Shown in pieces: positions 24,227-28,283 of a stretch of 64,000 nt of DNA. The stretch lies in NCBI GenBank assembly GCA_964368985.1, contig CAYJDW010000002.1, positions 28,171 through 92,170 of the forward strand. Direction: 5' to 3'. Every line of letters starts with the position of its first letter. The first letter of the stretch is position 1. Source of the DNA: an uncultured Myxococcales bacterium. Lineage in GTDB: Bacteria > Myxococcota > UBA727 > JABDBI01. The notes beneath the pieces were generated by a model. The model did no database searches. It was not told where the DNA came from and saw only the letters and a program-made list of their open reading frames with translations. A program made the position numbers and the translations under genes.

Positions 24227-26242
24227 ATGTTAAAATCACTTCATCCTAGAACTCCGATTCGCTTGCAAATAAACCCCATCGAATGTGGCGCGGTTTGCTT
24301 GGGAATTATTCTTGATTATTATGCCTATCCCAATACTCAGTCCCAGCTCAATAAACTGGTGGGTGTTTCGAGAAATGGGAGTGACGCGGCATCCTTGATT
24401 AAAGGCGCTGAACATTTTGGTTTGGAAGCGTCAGGCAAAATGCTCAGTGCATCGGAGATCAGCAAATCCCCCAAACCTAGCATCGCATTTTTTGACGCCG
24501 CCCATTTTGTAGTTGTCGAAGGATATTGGCTGGGAAAATACTTTATTAATGACCCGGCGCGAGGTCGATATAGCCTCTTGGATAAAGAATTCAGGCAAAG
24601 ATATAGTGGCATAGAAATTGCTATCAAAGGGCGCTACCGTTTCCAATTTAAAAGCCCCAAATCTTATTTGGGAATGGGATTTTTTAGCACCGGCGCGGTG
24701 GGGGGGCTCTTGCTCAGTGCCTTATTGCTGAGTTTAAGCAATGCCATTTCTTTTCTTCATGTATCACATTTAAATTTGCCCATCCTTAGCATCTTTGCCT
24801 TAGTGCTCATGATTGGCTTTTTTCTGTGGTCATTGCGATCAGTGTTTTTGTCGAGCTTAGATAGGGGAGAGCGAGAGTTTCAGCATTTTTTTATCGCGAC
24901 TATTGCGAAGTTGAGTCCCGCTTTTTTTGAAGACCGCCCTTTTTCTCCCTATGCCTCGATTTTAGGCTCGGTGAATAGTTTTTTTGTTCCGCTACCAACT
25001 TATTTTCGGGGAGCGATCTTAGGCGCCCTAAGCGCGATTTATCTCATACAAGCCCTAGTTTTTTGGCCCTTTTCATTGCTTTTGATGGGCATGTCAGGCC
25101 TTATTTGGTTGATGAATTCTTTGGCTCACTCGTCGCCATTTATCAGGCCAGACATTCTCAAAGACATCATGAATAAATTTCCCCCCATGGATGCCATGGG
25201 TCAGGCTGAGGAGCTGATAAAGCTTCAACTCGCAAATGATTTCGAGAGAGTGCGGGCGCATTATGATGCAATTCGCCAGAGCAAGAATCGCATGGTTCAG
25301 CTGCTATTGCTCACTTTAATAGCCATTTTACTTGAATGCTCGATCGGCCAAAAATATTTAAACGCAGGTTTACTCACTCACGGCGAGATGCTCGGAGCGC
25401 TCAGCTTCTTAATGGCAGTTGCAGGTCTATCATGTTTATTAAGCCAAAAATCGGGGCTTAATGAGGACTATCAAGCAGCTTTGGTGAATGAAATGAATAT
25501 TGATGCTCATCATTCAGTGGAAAAAGCCAGCGAAACTAAGGATGTCTTGGCCATAAATAAAGGAAGCTTTGGCTTTGTGGGTGAAGCTCATTTATTTTCT
25601 GAGTTGAACATCAATCTTCAACCTGCCACCCTTTACGCTCTGGTAGGTGGCCCAGCTTCGGGGAAATCGACGCTCCTAAGGCTGATGGGGAAAAAACTTT
25701 TATTAAACAGTGGCGAGCTTAGTATGGCCTCGTCAAATAAAGAAAGAATAGCTTTTGCGTTAATCGACGACGACGCCGAGATATTTTCGGGGACTTTATT
25801 GGAAAACGTGCGGGTCTTTGATCAAGCATTTTCGGAACATGAAGTCGGCGAAGCCCTTAAGCAATCTGTTATCGAAGAGTTATTTTATAACCGGCCCATG
25901 GGTTTGTTATCTCAGATTGATCACGGTGGGGCTAATCTTAGCGGTGGACAAAAAAAACGATTGTTGCTTGCGCGTGCTCTTTTGCGTAAGCCCGCATTGT
26001 TATTGCTTGACAACTTTTTTGACAGTCTTGATCGAGAATGCTCGATGGCTGTTCTAGAAAAGCTCCGTCGGCAGGGAAACACTGTTGTATTTACCACTTT
26101 TAGAGAGTGGGAATTGGCCTTATGTGATCAGGTTATTTTTATCGACCAAGGCCAAGTTTCCATAGCCTCTCATGAATATTGGGTCGCTCACAGCCTTAGT
26201 TATAGAAGTCTCATCGCCGACAATGAGCGGGGGGCTGACTGA
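24227..26242 (+). CDS. Peptidase-containing ABC transporter subunit A: N-terminal C39 bacteriocin-processing peptidase + TMD + NBD with degenerate catalytic site
   Basis: C39 motifs QINPIECGAVCLGIIL (catalytic Cys) and AAHFVVVEGY...INDP (His/Asp region). Walker A GGPASGKST and a canonical LSGGQKKRL signature. Walker B reads LLLLDNFFDSLD, so Asn replaces the catalytic Glu. The H-loop is TVVFTTFRE, with no His. Confidence 0.8.
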   Translation: MLKSLHPRTPIRLQINPIECGAVCLGIILDYYAYPNTQSQLNKLVGVSRNGSDAASLIKGAEHFGLEASGKMLSASEISKSPKPSIAFFDAAHFVVVEGYWLGKYFINDPARGRYSLLDKEFRQRYSGIEIAIKGRYRFQFKSPKSYLGMGFFSTGAVGGLLLSALLLSLSNAISFLHVSHLNLPILSIFALVLMIGFFLWSLRSVFLSSLDRGEREFQHFFIATIAKLSPAFFEDRPFSPYASILGSVNSFFVPLPTYFRGAILGALSAIYLIQALVFWPFSLLLMGMSGLIWLMNSLAHSSPFIRPDILKDIMNKFPPMDAMGQAEELIKLQLANDFERVRAHYDAIRQSKNRMVQLLLLTLIAILLECSIGQKYLNAGLLTHGEMLGALSFLMAVAGLSCLLSQKSGLNEDYQAALVNEMNIDAHHSVEKASETKDVLAINKGSFGFVGEAHLFSELNINLQPATLYALVGGPASGKSTLLRLMGKKLLLNSGELSMASSNKERIAFALIDDDAEIFSGTLLENVRVFDQAFSEHEVGEALKQSVIEELFYNRPMGLLSQIDHGGANLSGGQKKRLLLARALLRKPALLLLDNFFDSLDRECSMAVLEKLRRQGNTVVFTTFREWELALCDQVIFIDQGQVSIASHEYWVAHSLSYRSLIADNERGAD

Positions 26243-26243
26243 G

Positions 26244-28283
26244 ATGGCGCGAGCAAAAATAAGCTATTTTTCTTTGTGGCAGATTGATCCTTATGCCGCG
26301 AAAGAATCTGCCCAATCTCCGAAACGGATTGAAAAGCTGCTCTATAAAGCCGCCGAATTCTTCGTGCTCAAGCCGCAAGATATTCTTCGCTTAGGCAAAA
26401 GAATGCCAATAAGCGAGGCTATTATTAATTTATCTTCTCAATTGGGAATGAATGGGAAAATTATTTCTAAAGAAGAAATACGGCGAAACGATAATTTGCC
26501 CATCATTGCGTGGCATCAATTAAAAAAAGAAATTAGTCTCTTGGTTCCTTATTCGCGAGGAAGATTTCTGATCGTGAATGAGAAAAATAATCGCGGTCAG
26601 CTGATTCATTTTGACGAGATTCCCCAAATATTTAATAACCTCATGCTCTTGTTTGTTGCCGAAAAAAATGAGTCAAGATCAATGTTTGAGCTAAATAATT
26701 TTATAAGACGCTGCGTGCCCTTGAATCTGCTGGCTCTATCATCGGTAATAAAGATAGTAGTGATATTCGCTTTTTTCTTTCTTTGCTCGAGATTATTTAT
26801 ATCAGCAAGCTCCCTGCAATTTTATGTTCTAGGTTTTGGTTTAACCTGCTTGCTCGGAATGATTTTTGTTAGTGATTATTTATTAATTCATTGTGGGGGC
26901 AAAAATTTTGTAATGGCATCATTGATGTCGTTCGCAAGTTTTTATGAGCGATTATTTGGCATGTCATCGGATATATTTGCGAAACAATCAGCTCCGAGCA
27001 TGCTTCGTCTTAAAGAAAATATTTTCGAAGATCTGAATTTTTTCTTTTTCGAACAGCCCCAAAAATTGATCTATCCGATGATTATTTTTGCCAATTTGTG
27101 GGTGTGGTGGTTTTGGCATCCCGCTTTATTTTTTGCAATATTATTACTGCTCCCATTGGCACTAATTTCTCGGACTTTTTTCAAAAATAAGTTTGCTTCT
27201 TGCGCTGAGAAAATTGAAATGATTCAAGAGAAACAGAGTCATTTAATTGAGGCTTGGGAATCATCTTTTTCGATGATGGTGAGTCTAAAGGGTTTAAGCC
27301 CGCTTCTTGTACGCCTTGCTGGCGAATGGAGTGCGCTACGGCAGATAAATCTTAGACTCATGAGAATGCGAATACTTGCGGCCAACATAAGAATTCTTAT
27401 GCCTCTTTTAATGCTCATCTTCGCTCTGATCGCATTTTATTGGTGGCCGCTTAAAATCGGATTTTTAGCGATGCTGCTATTGCTCTTTGACATGCCAGTC
27501 TTAGGATTTTCCTTAGCAGAACTTGCCTTAGGGAGGGGGTTTATTAAACCATTATCGAAATCCTCCATAAATTCATTAGAAAAAATTCCGAAATTAGCTT
27601 CGGCTTTGCGGGTACTTCCCGTTCACTTTAATGGAACGATTGAACTATTGAATGTGTCGTTTAGTTATGCGGAAAGTAGTATGGCAATTATTAAAAATGC
27701 CAATTTAGTTATTGAAGCTGGTCGCTACTATCAAATCTTAGGAAATTCGGGAACGGGAAAATCGACTTTGTTAAAGCTGATGACTGGGCAAGTTTTTCCC
27801 ACCCATGGGCAAGTGCTTTTTGACGGACAAGATGTGCGTAGTTTAAAGCTTGATGCTCTACGTTCGCATTTCGGAATTGTCTCTCAAGAAAACCACATCT
27901 TCGCCGGCAGTATTTATGAAAATATTGTTTGCGGACGTATGATTTCACAAAAAGTTATCGAGAGACTTTTATTAAGTCATGAAATTTTTGATTTAATTCT
28001 CGATCTGCCTATGGCTTTACAAACTTATGTGTTTTTACGTGCACCCAATTTATCGCGAGCACAAATAGTCGTAATTTTAATAGCGAGAGCCTTGGCGCAT
28101 GATCCAAAAATAATTTTTATGGACGAAATATTTAAAGGTATCGATGCACATGAGCAAAAAATCATAAGCGATTTTCTCGCTTCTCTCCCCATTACCAGAA
28201 TTATCATCTCTCATCAGCATCTTTCATTGCCCTCCTGTCAGGCAATTAATATTCAATCATCAACGCTCAAAGTAGTGTCGTAA
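26244..28283 (+). CDS. ABC transporter subunit B: Cys-less C39-like domain + TMD + NBD with consensus Walker B/H-loop but degenerate signature
   Basis: The start is taken at MARAK, immediately after the upstream stop. The N-terminal roughly 160 aa have the C39 layout (PIIAWHQ...RFLIVNEKNNRGQLIHFDEIP) without a catalytic Cys. Walker A GNSGTGKST, Walker B IIFMDEIFKGID, H-loop IIISHQH. The signature is degenerate (NLSRAQIVV, LSRAQ for LSGGQ). Confidence 0.75.
   Translation: MARAKISYFSLWQIDPYAAKESAQSPKRIEKLLYKAAEFFVLKPQDILRLGKRMPISEAIINLSSQLGMNGKIISKEEIRRNDNLPIIAWHQLKKEISLLVPYSRGRFLIVNEKNNRGQLIHFDEIPQIFNNLMLLFVAEKNESRSMFELNNFIRRCVPLNLLALSSVIKIVVIFAFFFLCSRLFISASSLQFYVLGFGLTCLLGMIFVSDYLLIHCGGKNFVMASLMSFASFYERLFGMSSDIFAKQSAPSMLRLKENIFEDLNFFFFEQPQKLIYPMIIFANLWVWWFWHPALFFAILLLLPLALISRTFFKNKFASCAEKIEMIQEKQSHLIEAWESSFSMMVSLKGLSPLLVRLAGEWSALRQINLRLMRMRILAANIRILMPLLMLIFALIAFYWWPLKIGFLAMLLLLFDMPVLGFSLAELALGRGFIKPLSKSSINSLEKIPKLASALRVLPVHFNGTIELLNVSFSYAESSMAIIKNANLVIEAGRYYQILGNSGTGKSTLLKLMTGQVFPTHGQVLFDGQDVRSLKLDALRSHFGIVSQENHIFAGSIYENIVCGRMISQKVIERLLLSHEIFDLILDLPMALQTYVFLRAPNLSRAQIVVILIARALAHDPKIIFMDEIFKGIDAHEQKIISDFLASLPITRIIISHQHLSLPSCQAINIQSSTLKVVS

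Follow-up and report, generated by a model that had tools for sequence, protein, structure and literature searches.

A predicted heterodimeric C39 peptidase-containing exporter, distantly related to the NHLP/Nif11 cassette, with protease and ATPase functions apparently placed on separate subunits

The closest described relatives of the locus analyzed here are the NHLP/Nif11 export cassettes, defined by the families TIGR03794, TIGR03796 and TIGR03797 and linked to precursor peptides by Haft et al. (2010, PMC2887384), who also noted that the precursors are often unlinked to the cassette and multi-copy. [quoted passage not shown] Here we describe positions 24227-28283 of a 64,000-nucleotide (nt) stretch of DNA from an uncultured Myxococcales bacterium (hereafter, the window), where two adjacent genes downstream of a gene for an HlyD-like adaptor encode two different ABC subunits, A and B. 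Since the NHLP/Nif11 cassette has already been defined, an exporter with two different ABC subunits and one peptidase is not new in itself. What distinguishes the cassette in the window is a division of labor: it appears to be a streamlined descendant of the NHLP/Nif11 type, in which A and B would form a heterodimeric type-I ABC exporter with protease and ATPase on separate halves, and we give this reading a probability of about 60%. Judged computationally, the locus would represent a conserved variant of a known bacteriocin-export cassette in an uncultured lineage.

Subunit A (24227..26242, plus strand, 671 amino acids (aa)), identified with Pfam and NCBIfam profiles, consists of a C39 peptidase, a transmembrane domain with about six hydrophobic segments and a catalytically degenerate nucleotide-binding domain (NBD). 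The first-pass annotation of this DNA, made from the sequence without database searches, had called the C39 domain intact on the basis of the motifs ECG...C, HFVVVEGY and NDP, and this proved correct. The domain (24251..24625) matches Pfam Peptidase_C39 with E = 2.4e-25 and has the PCAT-type N-terminal set of catalytic Gln, Cys, His and Asp, namely Q14 and C20 in the QINPIECG block (nt 24266-24289), H93 in HFVVV (nt 24503-24517) and D109 in NDPARG (nt 24548-24565). The NBD (ABC_tran, E = 7.7e-16; motifs at 25646..26107) has the Walker A motif GGPASGKST (nt 25646-25672) and a canonical LSGGQ signature (nt 25937-25951). Its Walker B motif reads LLLLDN (nt 25997-26014), with Asn596 in the position of the catalytic Glu, and its H-loop reads TTFRE (nt 26093-26107), with Phe625 replacing the His. 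In addition, the Q-loop (LIDDDA, nt 25760-25777) has no Gln, a loss absent from the first-pass annotation. Subunit B (26244..28283, plus strand, 679 aa) likewise has about six hydrophobic segments, preceded by a putative C39-like domain and followed by an NBD that looks competent except for its signature. The motifs of this NBD (27741..28220) are Walker A GNSGTGKST (nt 27741-27767), Q-loop VSQENH with Gln548, the degenerate signature LSRAQ (nt 28050-28064), Walker B IIFMDE (nt 28110-28127) with the catalytic Glu628, and H-loop ISHQH (nt 28206-28220) with His657. All NBD motifs that had been claimed for the two subunits were found in the corresponding open reading frames (ORFs): GGPASGKST, LSGGQ, the Asn in place of the catalytic Glu and the His-less TTFRE in A; IIFMDE, ISHQH and the degenerate LSRAQ in B.

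Assignment of these residues does not depend on a particular alignment. Asn596 occupies the position of the catalytic Glu, and Phe625 that of the H-loop His, in three independent alignments (phmmer against an ABCB19 structure, a BLASTP comparison of the two subunits, and a MAFFT alignment that includes canonical relatives), which answers the concern that the catalytic Glu of A might lie elsewhere. When the motifs are assigned to composite ATP sites, every defect maps to one and the same site. Site I, the degenerate one, is made of the Walker B, H-loop and Q-loop of A and the signature of B; site II, the consensus one, is made of the Walker A, Walker B, Q-loop and H-loop of B and the LSGGQ of A. 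Degeneracy of site I is also present in syntenic relatives with 29-47% identity. The complementary pattern of one consensus and one degenerate site is real, as had been proposed, and is kept in five of the seven tabulated lineages, those in which site II is consensus; in L013 and L015, which are divergent relatives, the second site is not fully consensus (L numbers denote the loci used for comparison).

This complementarity argues for a heterodimer, because a homodimer of B would have a degenerate signature in both sites and a homodimer of A would have no catalytic base. We therefore infer that A and B associate physically. In such a complex B would supply the only catalytic ATP site, with its Walker A Lys, Asp-Glu628, Q-loop Gln and His657, completed by the LSGGQ of A. 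The site on the A side, with an intact Walker A, Asn596, Phe625 and no Q-loop Gln, facing the LSRAQ of B, would bind ATP without hydrolyzing it and, like its counterparts in TM287/288, TmrAB and BmrCD, serve as a stable 'glue', so that hydrolysis would be confined to a single site. With A as the only active C39 protease, cleavage would take place at one defined lateral entrance.

The N-terminal domain of B (26244..26693) has no conserved His or Asp, and residues 1-156 contain no Cys at all. Searches of B against Pfam at E ≤ 10 returned no C39 match, and its N-terminus had no match among PDB sequence profiles. Residues 1-160 were modeled with AlphaFold2 from an alignment of three sequences, none of them a C39 protein, and the model reached moderate confidence (predicted local distance difference test (pLDDT) score of 62 overall, 70-87 in the core), and the C39-like domain (CLD) of HlyB was among the top structural matches for this domain. 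Full-length B was modeled as a type-I exporter; in Foldseek searches the model had PCAT1 and HlyB as its top matches, with about 650-670 aligned columns, as compared to about 560 columns for exporters without an N-terminal domain. It is thus fold comparison alone that supports a Cys-less C39-like fold at the N-terminus of B, and at this level the earlier proposal of such a domain is upheld, the first Cys of B not occurring before residue 157. By analogy with HlyB, this domain may dock or hold the substrate. Homologs of B were collected as neighbors of A homologs, a word-indexed search with B and with an alignment of the B clade having returned only two close relatives.

To place A among its relatives, we relied on a scan of 1.84 billion representative proteins, the best 150 representatives being analyzed for fusions. 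The scan yielded 35 relatives of half size in which the H-loop His is missing, and all 35 keep Gln, Cys, His and Asp at the positions of Q14, C20, H93 and D109. The protease is therefore under strong constraint, unlike the catalytic residues of the NBD. The first-pass claim that the active C39 domain sits on the ATPase-dead half is accordingly correct for the window, and the same arrangement appears to be a rule across the wider family. In the B partners the Walker A Lys is kept in 10 of 10 and the Walker B Asp-Glu in 9 of 10, and the signature is degenerate in all 10. A scan of genome contigs with A returned only unrelated ABC ATPases with 24-27% identity.

Among the best 150 representatives, 63 turned out to be natural fusions of the two ABC subunits (ABC1-ABC2, 1257-1790 aa, within search entries P0283-P0404), in which the order of domains is that of the genes. 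For example, P0286 matches TIGR03796 with 1360 bits at residues 23-731 and TIGR03797 with 1223 bits at residues 1056-1744; the respective scores of P0314 are 931 and 918 bits. Site II of the fusions is consensus: Glu, His and Gln are all present in the second NBD of 61 of the 63, and an SGG[QE] signature in the first NBD of 58. On the other side, the first NBD has lost the Q-loop Gln in 43 of the fusions, has Gln or Ser instead of His in 10, and Asp or Gly instead of Glu in 7, while the signature of the second NBD is other than SGGQ in 51, most commonly STGQ. This amounts to a milder degeneracy of predicted site I, with the same direction of asymmetry in split and fused forms: catalytic residues go missing from the half with the peptidase, and the signature decays in its counterpart. 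The fusions support the view that A and B act as one transporter. No description of fused peptidase-containing full transporters was found in the literature searched.

The relationship to the NHLP/Nif11 cassette is best judged from profile scores. A has TIGR03796 as its best NCBIfam match (262 bits; cutoff 853), and B has TIGR03797 (180 bits; cutoff 709), with most of its length aligned. The adaptor has TIGR03794 (NHLM_micro_HlyD; 107 bits; cutoff 156), of which it covers only positions 253-419, in addition to the N-terminal positions 5-76 of type_I_hlyD. None of the three proteins reaches the equivalog cutoff. Because all three scores are far below it, the cassette is a distant, sub-threshold relative of the NHLP/Nif11 cassette by sequence and not a member. 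This kinship was missed in the first-pass annotation, which had otherwise read the motifs, their complementarity and the location of C39 on the dead half correctly. Gene order (HlyD-like, ABC with C39, ABC without active peptidase) matches that of two canonical cassettes, L019 and L020, which come from one Nostoc and one Pseudomonadota metagenome-assembled genome. In both of these, ABC1 and ABC2 have consensus motifs in both ATP sites, so the asymmetry sets the clade of the window apart from canonical half-size ABC1/ABC2. Since milder erosion of site I is seen also in the fused relatives, it is from the canonical half-size forms only that the asymmetry distinguishes this clade. The second ABC subunit of the NHLM type was described as being without a peptidase domain (Haft et al. 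2010, PMC2887384). We observed that the N-terminus of canonical ABC2 in L020 (6722-8938) holds '...GYTLVRPDTGRR', resembling the C39 block 'INDPARGRY'; in view of this resemblance the peptidase-less NHLM subunit probably carries an ancestral C39-like domain.

The adaptor gene (23377..24225, plus strand, 282 aa) encodes an HlyD-like periplasmic protein without the α-helical hairpin. Aligned with the longer adaptors of the canonical NHLM type (420 and 479 aa; L019 and L020), all six clade members compared have a clean deletion of about 170-200 residues spanning the coiled coil. In the adaptors of the clade, which are 244-282 aa long, membrane anchor, lipoyl halves and β-barrel are retained; those without a hairpin come from the window, L005, L008, L013, L016, L018 and L021-L023. 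Owing to the deletion of the hairpin, a TolC-docking tunnel of the usual type is unlikely. An incomplete scan of the ORFs in the window turned up no protein resembling TolC.

The genomic position of the cassette is well conserved. It lies just downstream of RimO in all lineages whose upstream region is on the contig (8 of 10) and upstream of the seryl-tRNA synthetase (SerRS) gene wherever this is visible. In the relatives RimO and the cassette are direct neighbors, but in the window they are about 4.6 kb apart, with two genes between them. These two genes, 18794-20641 (minus strand) and 20841-22460 (plus strand), occur at this place in the window's own lineage only and encode a 615-aa third ABC exporter with fully consensus motifs and a 539-aa protein without a family match. 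Downstream of B, in 8 of 10 lineages, there is a homologous gene for a phospholipase D (PLD)-family protein of about 1000 aa. The window version (28320..31358, plus strand, 1012 aa) has two C-terminal HKD/PLDc_2 domains with intact HKD motifs (Pfam PLDc_2, 1.7e-30; NCBIfam cardiolipin-synthase-like, 1e-34, under cutoff), preceded by about 500 aa of no assigned family. It had no match among PDB sequences, and its N-terminus is shared with no other window ORF. The protein has neither a Sec-type signal peptide nor a double-glycine (GG) leader; the lack of the former makes export by a dedicated system attractive, and the protein is the best positional candidate for the cargo, or else may be a functional partner of the exporter. 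As a cargo with a GG leader it was rejected, the GG motif being absent and the 'small-Gly' site lying in a conserved β-like block. Alternatively, the cargo could be small double-glycine peptides whose genes lie at other places in the genome. We also considered a defense system and rejected it, because PADLOC returned only generic similarities to PLD/DrmC and ABC ATPases. At locus L023, an F-box protein gene of eukaryotic type (9048-10028) lies beside the PLD gene of the cassette, a possible sign that the lineage lives with a host or as a predator.

A small ORF (23100..23408, plus strand, 102 aa as listed) precedes the adaptor gene. Its conserved C-terminal part (23262-23405) comprises a transmembrane helix, a basic cluster (KKK/RR) and a tail ending in 'SSGLPIF', the cytoplasmic tail being KKKSSQSSGLPIF.... 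In tblastn searches the tail was found directly 5′ of the HlyD-like gene in the window, in L008 (9047-9181), in L005 (9023-9184; L005/6/7) and in L017 (9144-9260; L017/18), whereas L013 lacks it and no copy was found in L016; the tail matches no Pfam or NCBIfam family. In L017 it forms the C-terminus of a 285-aa thrombospondin-type-3-repeat protein (MtsC-like, 3e-11), and its make-up is similar to that of a C-terminal sorting tag to which a cytoplasmic motif has been added. The ORF could encode an accessory subunit or carry a substrate tag, if it belongs to the system at all. In L016, a lineage without an adjacent PLD gene, the upstream gene (799-1593) encodes an extremely cysteine-rich (CC/CCCC) protein of 264 aa with a signal-like N-terminal segment.

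[quoted passage not shown] The best-matching families, the shared gene order and the strict conservation of the C39 site all speak for it, as does the frequent separation of precursors from their cassettes in the known systems (PMC2887384). Yet the three proteins score far under the equivalog cutoffs, no ORF with a GG leader is found in the 64 kb, and the small ORFs near the cassette have no NCBIfam match, NHLP/Nif11 families included. Moreover, the position next to RimO is fixed, the PLD gene follows in 8 of 10 lineages, RiPP-modifying enzymes are never associated with the cassette at the loci examined, and the adaptor has lost its hairpin. On balance we find this explanation rather unlikely. 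An opposite and equally doubtful proposal is that the locus encodes a TolC-independent machine which is no longer a bacteriocin exporter and processes and exports, or inserts into the membrane, the PLD-family enzyme or SSGLPIF-tailed proteins, the PCAT having been split into a protease-only and an ATPase-only half. If so, there would be a graded series from fused transporters with two ATP sites to a protease subunit without ATP binding and without most of its membrane domain.

Several results weigh against the heterodimeric exporter itself. The transmembrane domains of both A and B fail to match Pfam ABC_membrane, the N-terminus of B aligns with the C39 domain of A colinearly but not significantly (hhalign E 0.014, probability 3%), and the model of the C39-like domain has a pLDDT of only 62. 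As for the cargo, a search for double-glycine leader patterns, covering every ORF in the window that reaches 30 aa, gave no credible candidate, and the PLD protein has no GG at its N-terminus, where the sole conserved 'small-Gly' site (QLSG|L) falls in a β-like, folded-looking block. Outside the window's subclade the pattern also loosens. Among the 35 A-type representatives, only 14 have the Walker A Lys and only 9 an xSGGQ signature, and the H-loop or Q-loop of B is eroded in the divergent L013, L015 and L021. Thus, by sequence, one consensus and one degenerate site is a description that fits the subclade of the window and not the whole clade. The most reduced form comes from marine and other metagenomes (L017 10001-13037 and L018 1321-4357; P0006 and its partner): its A, of 508 aa, consists of C39, only two transmembrane helices and a truncated degenerate NBD, and its B, of 505 aa, has six transmembrane helices and an NBD with no C39-like domain. 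Here, an accessory role for A fits better than that of a symmetric half-transporter. The eroded forms of the clade fit better with an A that evolves towards a protease-only accessory subunit, which is the main rival explanation for the window too.

Applied to the window, this rival would make B the real transporter, working as a homodimer, and A an accessory protease anchored in the membrane, with an NBD left over as a scaffold, so that A and B would share no heterodimeric translocation pathway. Such a role agrees with the frequent loss of the Walker A Lys and of the canonical signature in A proteins of the wider clade, with the reduced A of L017/L018 next to a B that keeps its six helices and NBD, and with the retention of the Walker A Lys and Asp-Glu of B almost everywhere. 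It would, however, put a degenerate signature of the LSRAQ type into both ATP sites, B signatures being degenerate in every partner inspected. Furthermore, in the subclade of the window the only canonical signature is the LSGGQ of A, conserved exactly where it completes the site of B; the transmembrane domain of A in the window is full-length and colinear with that of B, though the alignment is weak (hhalign E 0.001); and in relatives the ABC1-ABC2 fusions unite both halves in one molecule. We therefore consider a B homodimer improbable for the window and retain the A-B heterodimer as the preferred explanation.

Sequence quality was assessed by comparing the window over 8 kb with four other assemblies of the same locus (L001-L004). 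L001, L002 and L004 each differ from it by 5-7 nt, none of them within any motif. In L003 (JGI 3300056759) a homopolymer within B, at about window position 26899, reads GGGG against GGGGG and splits the gene into ORFs of 229 and 394 aa, a difference due to misassembly or to natural frameshift variation. Apart from this frameshift, nothing favors the notion that the substitutions are sequencing or assembly errors or that the genes are decaying pseudogenes, and it is effectively refuted by the identical motifs in the three independent assemblies, the same substitutions in syntenic homologs at 29-47% identity, the intact state of both ORFs and the invariant C39 residues; the Asp-Asn of A and the LSRAQ of B, whose correctness had been left as a caveat, can accordingly be taken as genuine.

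The genes considered above form a tightly packed run of five on the plus strand (small ORF, adaptor, A, B and PLD-family gene), with gaps of 1 nt between adaptor and A and between A and B. These gaps and the Shine-Dalgarno sequence described next point to translational coupling, which is indirect evidence for an A-B heterodimer. For B we take ATG 26244, one nucleotide past the stop codon of A, as the most likely start, correcting an ORF listing that began at 26172, because a GGGGG Shine-Dalgarno sequence lies within the end of A, 9-13 nt 5′ of this ATG, and because B homologs share the N-terminal 'KI(S/N)YFSLW' with B read from this position. The locus would be transcribed as a single operon, from the small membrane-tail ORF through the PLD-family gene. 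A scan for promoters and terminators gave nothing exceeding shuffled expectation, and the whole window had no match in Rfam. Further downstream, 35696-38359 encodes an 887-aa protein with nine cysteine-rich DUF4215 repeats (E = 7.7e-77). Such repeats are typical of Myxococcota-like genomes, and the protein fits the label 'Myxococcota bacterium' of the syntenic relative L013.

According to the first-pass annotation, no characterized C39-containing exporter is known to have this complementary pattern, and literature searches, in which no characterized C39 exporter with a degenerate site was found, agree: full-text queries combining C39 or PCAT with 'heterodimeric' and 'degenerate' retrieved no study of such a transporter, and a 2020 review of degenerate sites in type-I exporters mentions neither peptidases nor PCATs nor bacteriocins. 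For TIGR03796 and TIGR03797, the only mechanistic discussion in the literature searched was that of Haft et al. (2010, PMC2887384). The significance of the clade lies in a question posed by PCAT1: although this dimer is symmetric and has a pair of proteases and a pair of ATP sites, it handles only one substrate per cycle. The clade looks like a natural experiment in which the asymmetry hidden in PCAT1 has become fixed, with a single working protease beside a C39-like docking domain and a single catalytic ATP site beside a non-catalytic one, all as predicted here. Since split and fused relatives decay in the same direction, they offer a testable model for the coupling of cleavage, ATP binding and translocation in peptide-processing exporters, and this graded series of asymmetric relatives is the most useful by-product of our analysis. 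The degenerate-site principle, known so far from drug and antigen exporters, would extend to secretion systems with HlyD-type adaptors, and the hairpin-less adaptor together with the conserved PLD link hints at a different class of cargo.

Compared with known systems, A has the architecture of PCAT1 (Clostridium thermocellum), ComA, LahT and CvaB, namely, C39 followed by a transmembrane domain and an NBD, and PCAT1 is the best structural match for the model of B. In the homodimeric PCAT1, however, both proteases are active and both ATP sites are consensus, whereas here protease and ATPase would reside on separate chains, and only one of the ATP sites is consensus, the other being degenerate. 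By analogy, the positioning of only one of two bound substrates in PCAT1 makes a one-protease design mechanistically plausible. The ATP sites find their counterparts in TM287/288, TmrAB, BmrCD and TAP1/2, in which one NBD has lost the catalytic Glu and the H-loop His to replacement, its partner has a degenerate signature, and these changes come together in a single composite site; the second site is consensus, and the genes are adjacent and translationally coupled. The same Glu-to-Asn and His-to-aromatic changes are known from Pdr5, along with the degenerate signature LNVEQ (PMC7756269). None of these transporters has a C39 or C39-like domain or an HlyD-type adaptor. With HlyB, the N-terminal domain of B would share a papain-like C39 fold devoid of the catalytic Cys, but HlyB forms a homodimer in which each half has a CLD and a consensus NBD, its partners are TolC and an HlyD bearing the hairpin, and its cargo is RTX proteins with a C-terminal signal. 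The NHLP/Nif11 cassette remains the closest system: it has three genes in the same order, supplies the best-scoring families, has one active C39 subunit out of two, and its second subunit has a homologous N-terminal domain, the TIGR03797 profile aligning from residue 98 of B. It differs in that the window proteins score 3-4 times below the equivalog cutoffs and in that canonical adaptors, of 420-479 aa, have the coiled-coil hairpin deleted here. Finally, canonical loci adjoin genes for NHLP/Nif11 precursors, LanM or a cyclodehydratase, whereas the cassette of the window lies between RimO and SerRS, beside a gene of the PLD family.

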